From IMG/VR virus record IMGVR_UViG_3300037400_004242: DNA of 64,000 nucleotides, one strand, 5' to 3'. The stretch is from a virus (Duplodnaviria > Caudoviricetes). A program made the translations under genes and the position numbers. This document shows positions 1 through 53,873 of this stretch, piece by piece. Below the pieces are notes generated by a model. The model had not been told where the DNA came from and ran no database searches. It saw nothing but the letters and a program-made list of their open reading frames with translations. How positions within the stretch are numbered: position 1 is the stretch's first letter; each line of letters opens with the position of its first letter.

Positions 1-923
1 TCCCCTATTTTGAAGGTACAAAAGAGAAGTATACAAAATGTCAACAATATTTTGTACCATTAGACCATAAAAATTGGCATACTGTTTACACAAACGAAAA
101 AATATTTGATTGGTATATTCGATTTGATATATATACAAATTTGGCAAATAAGCCAACCGATAAAAAAGAAGGATTCTTTCGTTTAATTACGTATGATAAA
201 GATGAAACGAAAATTAAGGATATAACGATAAGTGTAGATTCAAGAGATAATTTAGTTTTATCAAGTGGAGAAGAAACTTTGTTAAAAACTCCATTACAAT
301 TAGAAAAATTACATTGTTTTGAACTTCATGTAAAGAGTAATGAAAAATCAGAAACGATAGAATTATGGCATGGAGAAGAAAGAATTTATACAAATGGTAT
401 GACAATTTATCAAAGATTGGATGGAAAGCAACCTGTTACAATTCAGATAAAGAATATTGTATATTTGCCAACAAAAGAAACGTATCGTTTTGGTATTGCA
501 TTATCAGATTTTATTATTGGCAATACTAGATTGGGGAATTGTTATTGTCAAATATTGGATACAGATGTAAAATCTACGTTCAATAAAAAAAGTGATGGTA
601 CATATGAAACAGAAATGTACAATAAATTTATTAATCAGACACTATCAAATTTAGACCAAATTAAAGATGTTAAGGACATGAAAAGTCTAGTTTTGGCTTT
701 ATCAATCTCTGCTGTAGATGCAATTACTCCATTTTATAAAAATAACTTCTTGAAATATTGGGTAGATGATACTGGAATTAATTTACAAGATTTGCCTGAA
801 ATAAAAGAAAAGGGCGTTCAATCAGAAGTTATGGAAACAGACCCTGTAGAGGGTGGATTTTGGATGTATGATACATTACAGAGAACTTATAAAATGATGA
901 GTGGAGAGTGGGAATGGTCATGA
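1..923 (+). CDS. hypothetical protein, 5'-truncated (probably virion-associated)
   Basis: The frame of ORF 141..923 stays open back to position 3 (PYFEGTKEKY...), so the gene starts before the window. Confidence 0.7.
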   Translation, partial: PYFEGTKEKYTKCQQYFVPLDHKNWHTVYTNEKIFDWYIRFDIYTNLANKPTDKKEGFFRLITYDKDETKIKDITISVDSRDNLVLSSGEETLLKTPLQLEKLHCFELHVKSNEKSETIELWHGEERIYTNGMTIYQRLDGKQPVTIQIKNIVYLPTKETYRFGIALSDFIIGNTRLGNCYCQILDTDVKSTFNKKSDGTYETEMYNKFINQTLSNLDQIKDVKDMKSLVLALSISAVDAITPFYKNNFLKYWVDDTGINLQDLPEIKEKGVQSEVMETDPVEGGFWMYDTLQRTYKMMSGEWEWS

Positions 924-27593: not shown

Positions 27594-27622
27594 TTGACAT
27601 TTTTTAATAGATAATGTATAAT
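27594..27622 (+). promoter_or_regulatory. consensus sigma-A promoter
   Basis: TTGACA (27594-27599), 17 nt, TATAAT (27617-27622). Confidence 0.85.
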
Positions 27623-27627
27623 TATAA

Positions 27628-27740
27628 CCGAAGTAGAGAAATAACCTGTTGTATATGGTTACTTCACGAATAGCAAATGTAGACATGATTTGCTCTTCAA
27701 ATAAAAAGCATGGTGAAATAATCCATGCTTTTTATTTTTT
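27628..27740 (+). ncRNA. candidate small RNA (~110 nt)
   Basis: Perfect promoter, two hairpins and an intrinsic terminator (aaaaagcatgg/ccatgcttttt); no RBS or ORF. Confidence 0.6.
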
Positions 27741-45873: not shown

Positions 45874-46392
45874 ATGGCAATGAATAATGCAGGTGGACAT
45901 TTTGTGTTTGGACCTACTTTTAACTCCACACAGTACGTCCGTGCGGCTATTGAGGGTGTTATCAACGGTTTCTATGACGTTGATGCAGAAAAGGCTAAGG
46001 CTGTTGACGGTAAGTTGGCAGGTCACTTTGCGGCTATTTCTACAGATGGTAAGGTTACTCTTGCAGGTGCAAAGGGTGAAGGTGCTGTAGGTCTTATCCG
46101 TGAAGATTTGAAGGATATGATTAATGCAAGCGGTAAGGCTTCATTCTATATGCTTGGCATGGGTGGCGAATATCACGTTGCTGAGGAACGTCTTGGCAAG
46201 CCAATTACAGATTTTGCAGTTGGTAAGGATATTACTACAGATGCTAATGGTGCTATCGTTCCTGCCGCCGCTGGTGATAAGGTTCTTGGCACAGTCGTTT
46301 CCGTTGGTGAGTTCCGTCAGGGCAACATGTATGAGTGGGCTGGTACAGCAGCTAACGGTGGTTTGTTCCTCGGTTTCATCATGCATAGCTAA
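45874..46392 (+). CDS. abundant capsid-associated protein (decoration/cement-like)
   Basis: Directly upstream of MCP, GGAGGTG RBS, same high-expression codon bias, G/A-rich. Confidence 0.7.
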   Translation: MAMNNAGGHFVFGPTFNSTQYVRAAIEGVINGFYDVDAEKAKAVDGKLAGHFAAISTDGKVTLAGAKGEGAVGLIREDLKDMINASGKASFYMLGMGGEYHVAEERLGKPITDFAVGKDITTDANGAIVPAAAGDKVLGTVVSVGEFRQGNMYEWAGTAANGGLFLGFIMHS

Positions 46393-46411
46393 TTTGGAGG
46401 TTTGAATAATT

Positions 46412-47251
46412 ATGACACAAGAAGAAAAAGAATATTTAATCTCCAATGCTCTTGAAACAAGTGAGGGACGTGCCGCACTTGCTAGTGCTATGGCAAACCC
46501 AATTCGTACATCCCTTGATTATCAGGGTATTGGACGTAAGTTACTCGTTGTTGACCCACTTCCACAGGGCGCACTTCCTGTCTACGACCGCGATGTTGAC
46601 GCTAAGGCGTTTGTCGTTTCTAAGCGTGGTCAGGCTCCAGACCAGCTCGTTGAGGGTGAACGTATCCAGGTTCCAACCTTCGAGGTTGTTGCATATCCAC
46701 AGGTTCGTTTCTCCCAGATTAAGGAACGTCGTTTCAACATCATCGACCGTGCTCAACAGCGTGCTAAGTCAGACATTATGGCTGTAGAAGATGAGACATG
46801 CTTCTCACTTCTTGATGCCGCCGCCGCTTCTGTCAACCCAGTAACGGTTTCTGCTGGCGGTCTTACTCGTGATGCTCTCGCAACGGCTTTCCGTGAGATT
46901 GAAAAGCATGACCTTGCTGTTACGAAGATTGTTATGAATGCACAGGCTTTCGCTGATATTCGTAAGTGGGGACAGAATGAGTTCGACCCAGTAACACAGC
47001 ACGAAGTTCTCCAGACGGGTACATTTGGTCATTTGTGGACTGCTGAGATTCTTATCTCCAAGAAGGTTCCACTCAATACAGTTTATGTACTTGCTGACCC
47101 AGAATTTGTTGGTGTTATGCCAATTCGTCAGGATATCCAAGTCATTCCAGCCGATATTCCTGAAAGACTTCGTATTGGTTGGGTTGTTTATGAAGAAATC
47201 GGTATGTCTGTTGTTAACGGTATGTCCGTTGCAAAGATTACGATTAACTAA
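46412..47251 (+). CDS. major capsid protein (HK97 fold, short, no delta domain)
   Basis: GRAALASAMANPIRTSLDYQGIGRKLLVVDPLPQGALPVYDRD...RLRIGWVVYEEIG; strong codon bias; terminator follows. Confidence 0.9.
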   Translation: MTQEEKEYLISNALETSEGRAALASAMANPIRTSLDYQGIGRKLLVVDPLPQGALPVYDRDVDAKAFVVSKRGQAPDQLVEGERIQVPTFEVVAYPQVRFSQIKERRFNIIDRAQQRAKSDIMAVEDETCFSLLDAAAASVNPVTVSAGGLTRDALATAFREIEKHDLAVTKIVMNAQAFADIRKWGQNEFDPVTQHEVLQTGTFGHLWTAEILISKKVPLNTVYVLADPEFVGVMPIRQDIQVIPADIPERLRIGWVVYEEIGMSVVNGMSVAKITIN

Positions 47252-47281
47252 TTTTAACAACTACTTAAATTTCGATATATT

Positions 47282-47314
47282 AAAAAAGAGACACTTGATT
47301 GTGTCTCTTTTTTT
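47282..47314 (+). terminator. rho-independent terminator after MCP
   Basis: aaaaaagagacac-ttgatt-gtgtctcttttttt. Confidence 0.85.
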
Positions 47315-47338
47315 GTTTTATGGTATAATATATATTGG

Positions 47339-48205
47339 GTGATGAATATGTTTCTATCCAATACTGTACCTGTAAAATGGAATGGAAAAAATAAACAATA
47401 TTATATTTCTAAAGGTTATGTTTTTACAAAAATTGCAGATACTTTTCAATGTAAAATACAAGATTTATCAAAAGGAAGTCGCGCAATCGTTATATTAAAA
47501 TGCGATAACTGTGGGAAAGAATTTCAAAAACCTTATGGAAATTTAAGAGATAAAACAAAACATTATTGTAAAGAATGTAGGATTACAATGATGAAACGCA
47601 CTATTAAAGAAAAATATAATGTTTCGTGTGTATCAAAATTAAAAAGAGTTCAAGATAAAATAAAGAAAACAAATTTAGAAAGGTATGGCTGTGAACATCC
47701 TATGCAAAACAAAGATGTATTAAAGAAACAACAAATGACAAACAAAAAACGTTATGGGCATATCACTCCATTGTTAAACACACAAGTTAATCCACATATT
47801 TATCAAAAATTTTCATATATGCAAAAACATATTTGTGAATTAGTCTACGGAACGCTAAATTATTATGAACATGGATTTTATATTGATGTAGCTTTAGTAA
47901 AAGAACATATTGCTATTGAATATGATGGTGGTGGGCATGATTTATCTATAAAACTTCATGCTTGTACACCTGAGCAATTTCAAAAAAAAGAAATTCAAAG
48001 AACAGAAATATTGCAAAGAAGCGGGTGGAAACTTATTCGTATTATTAATAAAAAAGATTTGCAAATTGAAAACGCATTATTGCGTTTGTTTATTAATTAT
48101 TCTAAAATGTATTTAAATAAAGGCCATCATTGGATTCATGTAGATTTTGATAAGCATGAAGTTCGTACATCGCAATTTACAAAAAGTTTTGGGGAGTTGG
48201 AATGA
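47339..48205 (+). CDS. putative homing endonuclease (Vsr/DUF559-like PD-(D/E)XK) with zinc ribbon
   Basis: CDNC...CKEC; TNLERYG repeats; IDVAL...IAIEYDGGGH...GWKLIRI; extended -10 TGGTATAAT upstream. Confidence 0.7.
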   Translation: MMNMFLSNTVPVKWNGKNKQYYISKGYVFTKIADTFQCKIQDLSKGSRAIVILKCDNCGKEFQKPYGNLRDKTKHYCKECRITMMKRTIKEKYNVSCVSKLKRVQDKIKKTNLERYGCEHPMQNKDVLKKQQMTNKKRYGHITPLLNTQVNPHIYQKFSYMQKHICELVYGTLNYYEHGFYIDVALVKEHIAIEYDGGGHDLSIKLHACTPEQFQKKEIQRTEILQRSGWKLIRIINKKDLQIENALLRLFINYSKMYLNKGHHWIHVDFDKHEVRTSQFTKSFGELE

Positions 48206-49570
48206 TACTTACAAAATTTGTGAAATTGAAATGGAATAGGAATAATAAAAAATTTTATACTTTAAAAGGATATAAATTTACAAACTATGGAGATGAATTT
48301 TTAGTTCATATAAAAGATTTATCAAAAGGAAGTTCTGCAATTGTTCAAGTACAATGTGAATATTGTAAAAAGATATATGATGTAAAATATTGTAATTATC
48401 AAAAAGTAGAAAAATACTGTTGTCATCAATGTTCTAAGAAAAAAGAACAAGAGACAAATTTAAAAAAAATATCATTGTAAAAATCCAATGCAAAATGATA
48501 CAGTTAAACAGAAAATGTATCAAACAAATCTAAAAAAATATGGAAACAAATGTTCTTTACGAAATGAAAATGTTCAATTGAAAGTAAAACATTTAAAAGA
48601 ATGTCCATTATGTCATAAAACATATAAACTTTTATCTTTGCATATTAAAAATTCTCATAACGAATTTTATAAAGAACAAGTAGGACTAATTCAAAAACAA
48701 ATAAATAATTTAGACATAAATAAAAATACAGACTTAACAAAATATAACATTTATTTAAGTTATTGTGTTTGTTGTAGAATATGGAAAGAATTTGATAAAA
48801 CATTATATGATAAAAGAGTAAAGAACTTAACATCAAAAAACATTTCAAAAGCAAAAAAAGGAATGAAAATGTCAGATGAATGGAAACAACATCTATCTGA
48901 AGCACATAAAGGACAAAAAGCATGGAATTGCGGATTAGATATGTCTGATAAACGTGTATATGATAATATTATGAAACGAAATCATACAATTGCAGAACAA
49001 AATAAATTAAAATATAAAACTGGAGAAATGGTTGCTTGGAAAACAGGATTAACAAATGAAAATTCTGAAAAAGTAAGAAAAATATCAGAAAAAACATCGA
49101 AAACAATGGCACAAAAAGAACAATATAATAGTAGAGGAATTGCAGGAATACGACCCGATTTAGGTTTCTTTTGTGCATCAACATATGAAGCAAACATTTA
49201 TCGTATATATCAATATTACAATAAAAAAGATGGAATTGATTATAAAAGAGAATATAACAATATTTTTCCTGTTCATATTCAAGGACAAATACATTATTAT
49301 AGAATAGATATTCAAGATGCATGTGGGCTATTTGGAAACAAAAACCAATACATTGAAGTTAAAGGATATATGAACGAAGAATCAATTGAAAAAATTAATG
49401 CATTTCGTAAAGAATATCCAAATTATAAATTAATCGTTATTGGTGGTAAGGATACAAATCCTGATATTGATTATTTTCAGTTGCAAGAAAAATACCAACC
49501 TTTAATTCCATTGTGGGAAACAAAAAAGAAAAATATACGTGTAACTCCGTGGTTATACAACAAAATTTAA
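48202..49570 (+). pseudogene. PD-(D/E)XK homing endonuclease split by a +1 frameshift in an A8 run
   Basis: Removing one A at 48462-48469 joins both ORFs and restores TNLKKYHCKNPMQ, matching TNLERYGCEHPMQ; C-terminal YRID...IEVKG. Confidence 0.65.
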
Positions 49571-49610
49571 TATATGTATTATATAATTAACCCTAGGGGG
49601 AGGAGTTTGT

Positions 49611-51296
49611 ATGTTAAAAAGACATGAAGTTAGCGGACAAAAACAATTAAATATGGATGTTTACCAAGCGTTTCAAAAACGTATGGATTTTGTCGTGAAA
49701 GAATTTGATGTCATTAGTATTTCATTTTCAGGTGGTAAAGATAGTGGTGTTCTTTTGAATTTGGTTATGGACTATTTAAAAGAGCATAATATTAATGATA
49801 AAAAAGTATGTATTTTCCATCAAGACATGGAATGTCAATATCAAGCGACTTCTGACTACGTAGAAGAAACGTTTAAAGAATTTGCAGATAAAGCAGAATG
49901 TTATTGGTTTTGTCAGCCGATTGAATCAAGAAATGCATTGAGTATGTTTCAACATTATTGGTATCCGTGGGATGACGAATGTCCTGAAAAATGGACTAGA
50001 CCAATGCCCAATTATCCATATGTATACACATTGAAAAATAATCCATTTTCTTTATATGAATATAAAATGGAATATCATGAACATGCAGAAAAATTTGAAA
50101 TTTGGTTAAAACAAAAATATGGTGGAAGAGTAATTTCTCTTACAGGTATGCGTGCAAGTGAATCCTTAAATCGTTATCGTGCAGTTATAAATAAAGTGTG
50201 TTGTTATAAAGGTAAAAAATGGACGAAAGAAATTGATAAGGACGTTTATGTAGCATATCCAATTTATGATTGGACAGTCAATGATATATGGATAGCAAAT
50301 GCTAAATTTGGATATAAATATAATCATTTATATGATTTGTTTTATAAAGCAGGAGTTCCATTAACACAGATGCGTGTTGCTTCTCCTTTTCATGATGATG
50401 CCAAAAATGATTTAAATATGTATCGTGTAATTGACCCACAAATTTGGTCAAAACTTCTTTGTCGTGTAGAAGGTGTTAACTTCGCGGCAATTTATGGAAG
50501 AACAAAAGCGATGGGATGGAATAAAGTTACCATGCCAAAAGGTAAAACGTGGAAAGAATATAATAAATTTATTATTTTAACATTACCTGCGGAAACACGT
50601 CAAAATTATGTAGATAAATTTAATTTTTCTATTCAATTTTGGTTAACAAAAGGCTCAGGATTAAGTCAAGATATTATTCAAAAATTATATGATACTACTT
50701 GTTTGATAACAAATACATCATTTATGAATAAAGACGAAATTAATAATATAGACTATAGCATCACGAAAAATGAAAATGGAGAATATACTTTAAATTTCCC
50801 AAGTAATTTTAAAGATAATATTTTTCATTATACGTTCTTTGATAACGTAAAAGTAAGGGCAAAAGGAATTTTAAAAGATTTAAAAGGGGAACCGATTCAT
50901 CGTATTAATGCATTAGGAGAAGAAATAGAGGACGAATATCTTCCAGATATTTATGGAGAATACGAATATGTGTTAGATAAAAATAGCAGAATTTATACTG
51001 TGGAACAAGGAATTAAAGATTCAAAAACAGAAGAAGAAAAAGCGTTATATGATGAAAAAAACAAAGATGATGTTTGCCCAAAAATTTCACATTTTGGAAA
51101 ACATATGAACTTCCAGGTTATTTGTTCTATGATTGCTGATGAAACAGATGTATTGCAGGAGACACAAGCAGTAGCTTCATGGAAACGAATGACAATTTGT
51201 TTGCTAAAAAACGATTATCTTTGCAAATACATGGGTTTTGGATTAACAAAAGAACAACAGAAAAAAGTTAATTATATTAAAAATATGAGTAAATAA
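49611..51296 (+). CDS. ibrA: IbrA-like PAPS-reductase/PP-loop family protein (DUF3440)
   Basis: ISFSGGKDS, GMRASESLNR, YPIYDW, MRVASPF, SWKRM...KND...MGFG. Confidence 0.85.
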   Translation: MLKRHEVSGQKQLNMDVYQAFQKRMDFVVKEFDVISISFSGGKDSGVLLNLVMDYLKEHNINDKKVCIFHQDMECQYQATSDYVEETFKEFADKAECYWFCQPIESRNALSMFQHYWYPWDDECPEKWTRPMPNYPYVYTLKNNPFSLYEYKMEYHEHAEKFEIWLKQKYGGRVISLTGMRASESLNRYRAVINKVCCYKGKKWTKEIDKDVYVAYPIYDWTVNDIWIANAKFGYKYNHLYDLFYKAGVPLTQMRVASPFHDDAKNDLNMYRVIDPQIWSKLLCRVEGVNFAAIYGRTKAMGWNKVTMPKGKTWKEYNKFIILTLPAETRQNYVDKFNFSIQFWLTKGSGLSQDIIQKLYDTTCLITNTSFMNKDEINNIDYSITKNENGEYTLNFPSNFKDNIFHYTFFDNVKVRAKGILKDLKGEPIHRINALGEEIEDEYLPDIYGEYEYVLDKNSRIYTVEQGIKDSKTEEEKALYDEKNKDDVCPKISHFGKHMNFQVICSMIADETDVLQETQAVASWKRMTICLLKNDYLCKYMGFGLTKEQQKKVNYIKNMSK

Positions 51297-51333
51297 AAAA
51301 AGATACGTACACAAAAATGTACGTATCTTTTTT
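51295..51333 (+). terminator. bidirectional intrinsic terminator
   Basis: aaaaaaagatacgtaca-caaaaa-tgtacgtatctttttt. Confidence 0.85.
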
Positions 51334-51341
51334 ATGCAAGC

Positions 51342-51537
51342 AAAAAGAGCAACATCAAACGGAAGAAAAATGTTGCTCTTGCAGAGAAAAGGAGAAATAA
51401 GCGAGTATGCCAAGAATCACTACTGGAAGAACGCTTTTTTATGAGAGATATGAACAGGAGGAATTATGATGAGAAAGCAAATATTTTTAGGAATATTTGT
51501 GTTTGAAAACTGTTTAAATCTCTCTATCTCGCTTACA
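51342..51537 (-). ncRNA. candidate small RNA (~195 nt) with anti-Shine-Dalgarno tracts
   Basis: Perfect minus-strand promoter, nested stems and its own terminator (aagagcaacat/atgttgctctt plus U-tract). Confidence 0.65.
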
Positions 51538-51542
51538 TGTTT

Positions 51543-51571
51543 ATTATACTATGTAGTGGTAATTTTGTCAA
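51543..51571 (-). promoter_or_regulatory. consensus sigma-A promoter, minus strand
   Basis: TTGACA (complement of 51566-51571), 17 nt, TATAAT (complement of 51543-51548). Confidence 0.85.
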
Positions 51572-51607
51572 TCACTTTTTATTGAAAAATTTGATATATG
51601 ATATAAT

Positions 51608-52123
51608 ATGTGTGGTGAGAGAAAAATGTTAAAACAGATTCCAAATACAAAACATATATATTATGCAGATAAAAATGGAAATATTTACAATAATAAAAAA
51701 GAAAAGAAAAAATGTCATTTAGATAAAGATGGATATTTAATTACTTCTATTGATGGAAAAAGTAAAAAAGTACATCGTTTAATTTTGGGAACTTTTGTTA
51801 TAAATAAAAATAATTATCCAATGGTAAATCATATTAATGGAGTTAAAAATGATAATCGACTTTGTAATTTAGAATGGGTATCATCTTCTCAAAATGTATA
51901 TAAGGCACATCATGAAACAAAAACTAGAATTGCAGGTATTAATACAGGAATGAAAGCTGTTCCTGTGATTTGTATTGAAATTTTAACAAATGCCATGTAT
52001 AATTATAATAGTATTTCAGAAGCAAGTAGAGCCTTGAAAATACCTGAATATATGATAAGTCGTTGTGTAAATGGAAAACGTAAATCAGCGAAAGGTTTTA
52101 TGTTTAAAAAAAAGGAGAATTAA
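51608..52123 (+). CDS. HNH homing endonuclease with NUMOD1-like domain
   Basis: VHRLI...VNHINGVKNDNRLCNLEWV; YNSISEASRAL; extended -10 TGATATAAT upstream. Confidence 0.85.
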   Translation: MCGERKMLKQIPNTKHIYYADKNGNIYNNKKEKKKCHLDKDGYLITSIDGKSKKVHRLILGTFVINKNNYPMVNHINGVKNDNRLCNLEWVSSSQNVYKAHHETKTRIAGINTGMKAVPVICIEILTNAMYNYNSISEASRALKIPEYMISRCVNGKRKSAKGFMFKKKEN

Positions 52124-52125
52124 TT

Positions 52126-52701
52126 ATGGAAAAGAAAAATGAAACTGAAGAGCAAGAATTTGTTTCACCTGTCTATCATGTTCGCTGTGTACCTGTTGAA
52201 AAATTAGTTGCAAATGAATATAATCCTAACCACGTAGCTCCCGAAGAATTTAAGCTTCTGTACGATTCAATTAAATGTGATGGTTATACTATGCCAATTG
52301 TTACATATTATCGTAAAGAAGACGATATGTACGAAATTGTTGATGGTTTTCATAGATATTCTATTATGAAAAGATATGATGATATTCGAGAACGTGAACA
52401 TGGATGTTTGCCTGTTGTTGTAATTGATAAGCCTTTGGAAGAACGCATGGCATCAACTGTAAGGCATAATCGAGCTAGGGGCACGCATGATGTAGACCTT
52501 ATGAGTAATATTGTTGGAGAACTTCATAAACTTGGTCGTGAAGATGCTTGGATTGAAAAGCATTTAGGCATGTCAGAAGATGAAGTACTTCGTTTAAAAC
52601 AGATTACAGGACTTGCAGAATTGTTTAGAGATAAAGAATTTTCTCAGGCGTGGACAACAGAAGATAATATCTCTGTAAATGGGGAGGAAGTTGAAGAATG
52701 A
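52126..52701 (+). CDS. ibrB: IbrB-like ParB/Srx-family protein
   Basis: SPVYHV, ANEYNPNHVAP, DGYTMPIV, IVDGFHR, STVRHNRARG. Confidence 0.88.
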   Translation: MEKKNETEEQEFVSPVYHVRCVPVEKLVANEYNPNHVAPEEFKLLYDSIKCDGYTMPIVTYYRKEDDMYEIVDGFHRYSIMKRYDDIREREHGCLPVVVIDKPLEERMASTVRHNRARGTHDVDLMSNIVGELHKLGREDAWIEKHLGMSEDEVLRLKQITGLAELFRDKEFSQAWTTEDNISVNGEEVEE

Positions 52702-53873
52702 AAATCTTTACAGATGATATGAAAATAGATGATGAAGAATGGAAAGATATTGATGAAACATATAAAATTAGTAATTTTGGAAGAGTAATATTTTTTAGAA
52801 ATAAAAAATGGTATTTATCGAATGTAAAGAATGATAGAGTATCTATTCATGCAAAAAAAATGCAGGTGAGCACTTTAGTATTAAAAACATTTAAAAATAT
52901 TGAATTAACAAGTAAAGAATATATTAAACACTTAGATGGGAATGAAGAAAATAATTGTATAGAAAATTTAATTGTTGATACAAAATCAAATAGGTATAAA
53001 CAGCTTGCAAAAGAAGGTAAGTTTGATAATTTTATTCATTCTACAACAAAGAACAATGTATTGATAGAACCATATGAATATACAGATGAAAACAATGTTA
53101 AATGGAAGTCGATTCATGGATATGAAGGATTGTATGAAATAGGAACAAATGGACATATTAAATATTTAACAAAAGATGGTTCAAAACATAATATGTCTAT
53201 CAATAACAATGGTAAAAAAGGATATTTAATTGTTCAATTAAGAAAAAATGGGCAACGTTCAAGTGAACTTGTACATCGCTTAGTTATGGAAAATTTTCAT
53301 CCACTTGAAAATATGAATGATTTGCAAGTAAATCATATTGATGGAAATAATAAAAATAATGATATTTCTAATTTAGAGTGGGTAACTGCAAAAGAAAATA
53401 TGAAACATGCAAATGATAACGGATTAGTTAATAACCAATCTGTATTTTTTAAATATAAGGGGAAAGAATATTTTCATATTCATGAGATAATGAAAGAATA
53501 TGATTTATCCGTTCAGGAAGCACAAAATGTTGTAGAACGAGTTCCAATTCGTGAAGCTGTATATGTAAAACGATGGAAAATTGAGAATGATTTACCAAAT
53601 GAAAAATGGGAAATTGTAGAAGGGTATAATTGCGAAATATCTAATTATGGAAGATGTTTGACTTATGTTGATAACCATCGCTTTAAATGTACATTAAAAC
53701 AGATTAGAAAAGATAAATATTATAATTTAACAGATATGTATGGACATCGTAAAGATTATATGATTGCAAAATTAGTACTTCATGCGTTTACAGATTATCA
53801 AGATGAAAAGATTCAATATAAAGATGGTAACGAATTAAATTTTAAATTAGAGAATTTAATATGGAAAAAATAA
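52698..53873 (+). CDS. NUMOD4-HNH homing endonuclease (three tandem units, central one intact)
   Basis: WKSIHGYEGLYEI...VHRLV...VNHIDGNNKNNDISNLEWV with two degenerate flanking copies. Confidence 0.8.
   Translation: MKIFTDDMKIDDEEWKDIDETYKISNFGRVIFFRNKKWYLSNVKNDRVSIHAKKMQVSTLVLKTFKNIELTSKEYIKHLDGNEENNCIENLIVDTKSNRYKQLAKEGKFDNFIHSTTKNNVLIEPYEYTDENNVKWKSIHGYEGLYEIGTNGHIKYLTKDGSKHNMSINNNGKKGYLIVQLRKNGQRSSELVHRLVMENFHPLENMNDLQVNHIDGNNKNNDISNLEWVTAKENMKHANDNGLVNNQSVFFKYKGKEYFHIHEIMKEYDLSVQEAQNVVERVPIREAVYVKRWKIENDLPNEKWEIVEGYNCEISNYGRCLTYVDNHRFKCTLKQIRKDKYYNLTDMYGHRKDYMIAKLVLHAFTDYQDEKIQYKDGNELNFKLENLIWKK

Follow-up and report, generated by a model that had tools for sequence, protein, structure and literature searches.

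In the DNA analysed here, which comes from a giant rumen phage, the interval between ibrA and a homing-endonuclease gene holds a block of sequence whose best reading, judged from its signals, is a self-contained small-RNA gene on the minus strand. When all readings are summed in which either the RNA or its transcription matters, it is likely that this small-RNA gene is functional. What is new here is that the block is specific to one lineage of the phage and that low variation is confined to exactly the unit that runs from promoter to terminator.

The window, i.e., the whole 64-kb stretch of DNA that was analysed, has a G+C content of 27.9%, and its long open reading frames (ORFs) all lie on the plus strand. 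The major head protein (46412-47251) is 80% identical to its counterpart in Bacillus phage G, a 497-kb phage, and the closest relative in IMG/VR is a 174.5-kb contig with a CheckV completeness of 35%. On the grounds of this identity and of the completeness estimate, the source seems to be an uncultivated phage of about 500 kb and a relative of phage G. Sequencing runs of bovine and pig gut from 12 studies contain DNA that is nearly identical to the window. A host among the Firmicutes fits the Shine-Dalgarno (SD) sites and the sigma-A-type promoters of the phage genes, and the phage is probably virulent. No replication origin is apparent in the window, where the cumulative GC skew climbs monotonically, and the region of the major head gene (46001-48000) has a G+C content of 39% compared with 27-28% in the rest of the window. 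The features on which the argument draws are the following:

49611-51296, plus strand: ibrA, with domain matches to PAPS_reduct and DUF3440
51296-51333, both strands: bidirectional terminator hairpin of 17 pairs, at the end of ibrA
51340-51380, minus strand: predicted intrinsic terminator of the RNA, with a 12-bp stem, a 12-14-nt loop and a U-run
51342-51536, minus strand: predicted non-coding RNA of about 195 nt, recognized by promoter, fold and terminator
51434-51439: T-run (A-run in the RNA) that is 5, 6 or 7 long depending on the strain, within a predicted unpaired linker of the RNA
51456-51585, plus strand: AGGAGG (51456-51461) and ORF for a hydrophobic peptide of 39 aa, with ATGs at 51466 and 51469 and the stop at 51583-51585
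51543-51571, minus strand: promoter of the sigma-A/sigma-70 type, with -35 box TTGACA (51571-51566), 17-nt spacer and -10 box TATAAT (51548-51543), a 12/12 match
51592-51607, plus strand: extended -10 promoter TGaTATAAT of the HNH gene, with motif ATATATGATATAAT, at the right edge of the block
51626-52123, plus strand: gene for an I-HmuI-like HNH homing endonuclease of 165 aa, with Pfam, PHROG and PADLOC matches
52126-52701, plus strand: ibrB, with a domain match to ParB_N; a second HNH gene comes next
27594-27738, plus strand: second unit with a 12/12 promoter and an RNA of about 105 nt, with two hairpins, a strong terminator and a z of -6.0

The genes are therefore ordered as ibrA, sRNA block, HNH gene, ibrB, and second HNH gene; in Streptococcus phages, ibrA and ibrB are directly adjacent, and in Bacillus phage G ibrA was not found. 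A start of the HNH gene at 51608 had been given earlier, and the ATG at 51626 is judged likeliest instead. IbrA of this phage has 561 aa and thus about 120 residues in addition to those of its relatives, hundreds of which have about 440 aa and align over just 60-70% of it. The first 200-400 nt of ibrA are a mosaic hot spot between strains. Three genes of the homing-endonuclease type (NUMOD3; I-HmuI-like HNH; HNH_3 plus NUMOD4) crowd ibrA and ibrB at 48488-53873, immediately downstream of the major head gene, and this cluster is wholly missing from the matching place in Bacillus phage G. A run of A8GG where the HNH gene ends, within the ribosome-binding site of ibrB (52100-52128), varies between strains (A7, A8 or A9, with GG or GGG; contigs L016 and L021-L030). 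Its +1 variants merge HNH and IbrB into a single ORF of 358 aa, called in many contigs, which could reflect a true fusion, programmed slippage or a homopolymer assembly error. A 7-nt duplication at 51592-51598, where the block ends on the right, is polymorphic. The word ATATATGATATAAT (51575-51609 in the window) is common to many gene-proximal sites in Bacillus phage G, and at loci of that phage (L035, L037, L041, and L042) four of the six sites read have TTTACA 13-15 nt upstream of it, i.e., 17 nt from TATAAT. These sites probably represent a conserved early-promoter type of G-like phages.

An earlier sequence-only reading had proposed a perfect TTGACA-17-TATAAT promoter on the minus strand, and a 12/12 match is indeed present, with the G at 51536 as the predicted transcription start. 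Promoters with a 12/12 match occur just twice in the window on both strands together, 0.2 being expected from first-order Markov simulations. The proposal that the RNA ends in a terminator of its own agrees with the sequence signals as well, an intrinsic terminator being located 195 nt downstream of the promoter in the correct order and polarity. The terminator hairpin (51380-51347, about -16.5 kcal/mol) has a T-run at its 3' side on the minus strand only, so that its polarity fits that strand alone, and it was unlisted by the consensus scan because its loop is longer than 8 nt. The neighbouring hairpin at 51296-51333 appears to terminate transcription of ibrA and to offer a second stop for the minus-strand RNA. 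In contigs L014 and L015, the loop of this ibrA terminator (51299-51333) is inverted (ACAAAAAT versus ATTTTTGT), which reads as a small inversion between the hairpin arms.

In the predicted RNA, four nested helices enclose about 140 nt as a core, and between this core and the terminator hairpin lies a single-stranded, CU-rich tract. For a 153-nt core, the minimum-energy fold reaches -25.6 kcal/mol with a z of -3.1, and longer forms reach z values of -3.8 (195 nt) and -4.2 (202 nt), whereas the opposite (plus) strand folds less well (z -2.3). The pairings uaagcgag/cucgcuua, gagagau/aucucuc, and caaauauu/aauauuug, which had been predicted earlier, are all three found in the minimum-energy fold of the core, and AACAG/CUGUU forms a fourth helix. 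Two tracts complementary to SD sequences had been described as unpaired. Both are present in the RNA, although CAUAAUUCCUCCUG is single-stranded only in part because its CUGUU end pairs with AACAG. The CU-rich single-stranded tracts of the RNA are UUCCUCCUG and UUUCUCCUUUUCUCUG. No SD-led ORF occurs on the minus strand of the RNA unit, and no Rfam family matched at its gathering score in the window, searches at E values up to 10 yielding chance-level matches only (miRNA models; the ylbH leader with 21 of 50 bits). The base composition of the block is not distinct, its G+C content being 30.4% versus 27.9% for the window.

The pattern of variation argues that this RNA unit is maintained. Sites with any substitution were counted over about 24 contigs of the lineage that carries the block (lineage 1). 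Across the 230 nt of promoter and RNA on the minus strand (51342-51571), a single site is substituted, 51360 in the terminator loop, and the promoter itself shows zero variants in the about 24 related contigs. In comparison, the 3' part of ibrA has 5.4 substituted sites per 100 nt, the HNH gene 3.6, and ibrB 3.3 (promoter and RNA versus coding flanks, Fisher p = 0.002). The left non-coding flank of 45 nt contains nine substituted sites, six of which stem from one loop inversion, and the right non-coding flank of 54 nt contains four. Both variants inside the RNA fall into segments predicted to be unpaired or looped, i.e., the terminator loop and the unpaired A-run, and variants reappear at 51336/51337, just beyond the terminator tail, and at 51574/51575, 3 nt outside the -35 box. 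The invariant block thus coincides with the minus-strand transcription unit, not with the 39-aa ORF. As the -35 box and the terminator tail are exactly where the invariant stretch begins and ends, the RNA unit seems to be under selection, and the data point to purifying selection acting on the putative RNA gene. If the cassette has spread recently along with the homing endonuclease, this could account for part of the low variation.

Some 30 contigs from many samples, gathered by exact matches to the HNH and IbrA proteins, can be sorted into three groups, of which the first, lineage 1, has the block of about 260 nt. Lineage 2 (contigs L012 and L013), whose ibrA is 9% diverged, has at the same site an unrelated block B of about 290 nt, which is devoid of a comparable promoter, terminator or SD-led ORF and is unstructured (z -0.7). 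Contig L001 (IMGVR_UViG_3300028048_001497) contains neither block. In L001, a TnpB insertion element (OrfB_IS605 / Cas12f-like TNB) with G+C-rich ends is located on the minus strand (L001:1440-2990) and fits exactly into the space from the HNH promoter to the HNH start codon; the sample from which L001 originates also contains a variant with the sRNA block (L003). A fourth arrangement, in a contig of an RNA library, consists of the block and then a sequence that agrees over its first 12 nt with the beginning of block B. These alternative arrangements suggest that short cassettes are swapped in the interval between the ibrA terminator and the -10 box of the HNH gene, and the block itself can be called a cassette because it is missing from close relatives. 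The lineages differ in that everything between the ibrA stop codon and the HNH -10 box is replaced, and no clean insertion scar is seen. Within lineage 1, block and HNH gene are near-identical where ibrA differs by 2.7-4.9%, mostly in its 5' part, and from this it looks as if the block and the homing endonuclease had spread together.

Homologs of the block were found neither in 50,697 phage records nor, with 44-mer and 21-mer patterns, in IMG/VR. The JGI metagenome collection, which evidently lacks the known block-carrying JGI contigs, gave no match to codon-degenerate or exact patterns, and the one pattern match among GTDB genomes turned out to lie in a MAG of Clostridia, at a ribosome-binding site without relation to the block. 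Paralogs of the block are absent from the window, from the 174.5-kb relative, and from Bacillus phage G, and no homolog, diverged or otherwise, turned up outside this phage lineage.

The only other 12/12 promoter of the window, at 27594, also drives a terminated non-coding RNA, and no SD-led ORF lies behind it. This unit, which is missing from the 174.5-kb relative / L001 record, is probably a second phage sRNA gene. Short-RNA units therefore look habitual in this phage, and perfect promoters seem to be kept for genes of short RNAs, so that transcription of the unit at 51342-51571 becomes a priori more likely. Pairing between the minus-strand RNA and the RNA of the 27594 unit was no better than with shuffles. 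In the RNA library X15, one assembled contig, which is unstranded and might derive from DNA carry-over or from another strain, covers 51386-51598 at a depth of 26 versus about 5 for pieces of ibrA and ibrB. This contig opens with an Illumina adapter at 51386, overruns the predicted RNA start, and continues beyond 51598 with 299 nt unlike the window; it was weighed neither for nor against the RNA. Antisense RNAs with defined starts are documented for virulent phages (PMC10914365).

On the plus strand opposite the RNA, the AGGAGG-led ORF for 39 aa (51466-51585) is present as had been described. Its second ATG (51469) has a 7-nt spacing to the SD, which is typical of the genes of this phage. The RNA is complementary to the SD, the start region, and the first 23 codons of the ORF, and the last codons overlie the promoter of the RNA. 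The peptide has a GRAVY of 1.42 and a hydrophobic window of 19 residues (residues 19-37) that scores 2.17, in which a membrane segment is predicted; its C-terminus is hydrophobic and a positively charged tail is absent. When the block is shuffled with its dinucleotide content kept, 0.2% of the shuffled sequences contain an ATG ORF of 35 codons or more behind an SD, and with SD and ATG held fixed 38 open codons are obtained in 2.9% of the shuffles; the ORF is unlikely to be due to chance. AGGAGG occurs at seven sites on the plus strand, two of which are in stretches without a listed ORF of at least 90 aa, and both of these stand before an ATG and an ORF.

The earlier remark that no clear plus-strand promoter is visible for the peptide holds, no sigma-70-type promoter with at least 9/12 matches being found upstream of the ORF (51250-51440). 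The phage motif TATTTW-N5-TAGA, a candidate late motif, does not occur upstream of the ORF either. Read-through from ibrA is a possible source of the peptide mRNA. No relative of the peptide was detected in 1.84 billion representative proteins, Pfam, NCBIfam, PHROGs or PADLOC, a search of the ESM Atlas gave noise only (0.80), and the ORF was never called as a gene. At codon 37, two different non-synonymous variants, T37A and T37I, are encountered. Because this codon varies and the conserved block ends inside the ORF, selection seems to act on the RNA unit and not on the peptide. An upstream ORF of 20 codons (51407-51469), which would overlap the start of the 39-aa ORF in a mok/hok-like manner, is frameshifted in many strains by the variation of the T-run and for this reason was not considered a gene.

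As to the mechanism, we tentatively favour a cis-antisense control of the opposite mini-ORF that resembles type I toxin-antitoxin modules. A host-type sigma-A promoter would drive the structured minus-strand RNA of about 195 nt, which would be ended by its own terminator. A plus-strand transcript that reads through the ibrA terminator would meet a perfectly complementary antisense RNA, covering the SD, the start codon, and the first 23 codons of the ORF for the membrane-type peptide, and the duplex would block ribosome binding and invite double-strand cleavage. In this way, the peptide would be kept off as long as host RNA polymerase keeps firing the consensus promoter. Transcription, its strand, pairing in vivo, translation of the ORF, and any toxicity of the peptide are what we infer from the sequence.

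Type I toxin-antitoxin modules with a 5' overlap are known from enterobacteria, for example hok/sok and ibs/sib. Such modules share with the block a hydrophobic ORF of less than 60 aa (39 aa here), an antisense RNA gene with a strong constitutive promoter and complementarity to the ribosome-binding site and start of the ORF (sequence signals in the present case), and carriage on a mobile element. In prophages of Clostridioides difficile, type I modules include CD0977.1/RCd11, and type I toxins of firmicutes combine a hydrophobic N-terminus with a positively charged, Lys-rich tail (PMC7699646). In contrast, the peptide described here has neither a promoter of its own nor a positively charged tail, and it is unrelated to Fst, Ibs, Hok, TxpA/BsrG or CD0977.1-like toxins. 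Also, its carrier is a probably virulent giant phage, not a plasmid or prophage, and its toxicity is putative. RNA and peptide should not be filed under any known toxin or RNA family.

The cis-antisense mechanism can be extended to an antisense RNA that serves as an infection-stage timer of a virulent giant phage, an idea to which, taken as one joint claim, we attach little probability. As long as transcription by host sigma-A lasts, the RNA would silence a membrane-active 39-aa peptide; once the phage takes over transcription, the RNA would decay and the peptide would be made; and the switch would hitch-hike among phage strains with the homing endonuclease. A module of the type I toxin-antitoxin kind would then have been turned to lytic timing instead of mobile-element maintenance.

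A less likely alternative is that the RNA acts in trans, its CU-rich tracts UUCCUCCUG and UUUCUCCUUUUCUCUG blocking the SD regions of host or phage mRNAs, and that the ORF is a mirror-image by-product. Such an action would be consistent with an invariant block that matches the transcription unit and not the ORF, and with the position of two anti-SD-like tracts in or beside unpaired regions. The two longest exact matches to start regions also concern the two neighbouring genes, one of 11 nt over the HNH start codon and one of 10 nt at the site of ibrB, although these matches were noted post hoc and their count is not significant. Over the 63 start regions, exact matches stay within the range of dinucleotide shuffles (P = 0.85 for at least 9 nt and P = 0.19 for at least 10 nt). 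Duplex energies with the translation-start regions of the window (61-63) equal those of shuffled RNAs, with the HNH gene ranking 6th and ibrB 30th among 63, so that the scan of phage ribosome-binding sites that had been suggested reveals no enrichment beyond shuffled RNAs in these 61-63 regions. The 10-nt complement of the ibrB ribosome-binding site to which the sequence-only reading had drawn attention does exist, but it is a generic SD word with three occurrences on the plus strand. In many strains the ibrB site gains a G or an A while the RNA is unchanged. With pairing not above shuffles, a rank of 30th among 63 and a site that varies independently of the RNA, the proposed blocker of ibrB translation is not supported. 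Finally, an open frame of 38 codons after SD and ATG would have to be a 3% coincidence.

C-rich sRNAs of Firmicutes that pair with SD sequences are of the RsaE/RoxS type. Like them, the RNA predicted here is a terminated sRNA in the size range of 100-200 nt whose pyrimidine tracts could pair with SD sites; in contrast to them, its tracts are CU-rich instead of C-runs in hairpin loops, and it has neither an Rfam match nor an enrichment of predicted targets.

It is improbable that the block has no present function at all and is a recombination relic, in which signals and ORF would be left over or due to chance and uniformity would result from recent spread with the homing endonuclease. In favour of such a relic, one might argue that the block is an orphan sequence of one lineage only, replaceable by an unrelated block or by nothing, that neither homologs nor covariation were found, and that in many strains the HNH gene inherited with it shows little variation, too. 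However, this would require that a perfect promoter, a stable fold, and a terminator in the correct orientation coincide, and the density of substitutions is about 8-fold below that of HNH and ibrB on the same haplotypes, whereas the adjacent non-coding flanks vary.

Phage morons are autonomous cassettes of promoter, gene, and terminator between conserved genes. The block resembles them in having its own promoter and terminator, in its presence or absence among close relatives, and in its position between two conserved genes. It differs in that its cargo would be a non-coding RNA and not a protein gene, in that its base composition equals that of the phage (30% versus 28% G+C), and in the lack of a clean insertion scar.

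About as improbable as a relic is the view that transcription as such, or an insulating effect of the block, matters and not the RNA product. A strong convergent promoter and two terminators would then shield the HNH gene and its promoter from ibrA read-through, by polymerase collision or by destruction of read-through RNA, a homing endonuclease being potentially harmful. The block indeed has the ibrA terminator directly on one side and the HNH promoter, to which it stands back to back, on the other, it is co-inherited with the HNH gene in lineage 1, and a similar role has been proposed for an antisense promoter of phage LUZ19 (PMC10914365). However, interference needs a promoter alone, which leaves the invariance over 195 nt and the stable fold unexplained, and the HNH gene is kept without the block in lineage 2 and in L001. 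Antisense and small RNAs of the virulent phages PAK_P3, phiKZ, and LUZ19 have been mapped by cappable-seq/dRNA-seq (PMC10914365, PMC8244752). The present case is similar to them in showing a lone opposite-strand promoter in a genome transcribed in one direction and a short RNA whose start is defined. The RNAs of those phages come from experiments and mostly overlap long genes, whereas the RNA described here is known from prediction and would be a compact promoter-to-terminator gene in an intergenic block that faces a mini-ORF.

A group I intron, 6S RNA or omega/HEARO RNA lacks Rfam support, no intron half is located behind the HNH gene, the block has no similarity to the omega-RNA region of the TnpB element in L001 as a HEARO/omega RNA of IscB/TnpB might, and an HNH-associated guide RNA was rejected with the neighbouring HNH protein being an I-HmuI-type homing endonuclease and not IscB.

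To our knowledge, regulatory RNAs of giant phages are almost unexplored, and we know of none in the phage G group. The candidate presented here is compact and testable, with a consensus promoter, a defined terminator, constraint at the population level, and an obvious target in cis. If RNA and peptide behave as proposed, the logic of type I toxin-antitoxin systems would operate in a lytic jumbo phage and would move with a homing endonuclease. If they do not, this phage would still have at least two RNA genes with a consensus promoter, the block being one of them, and these RNAs may be early products of host polymerase that are aimed at host or phage translation.
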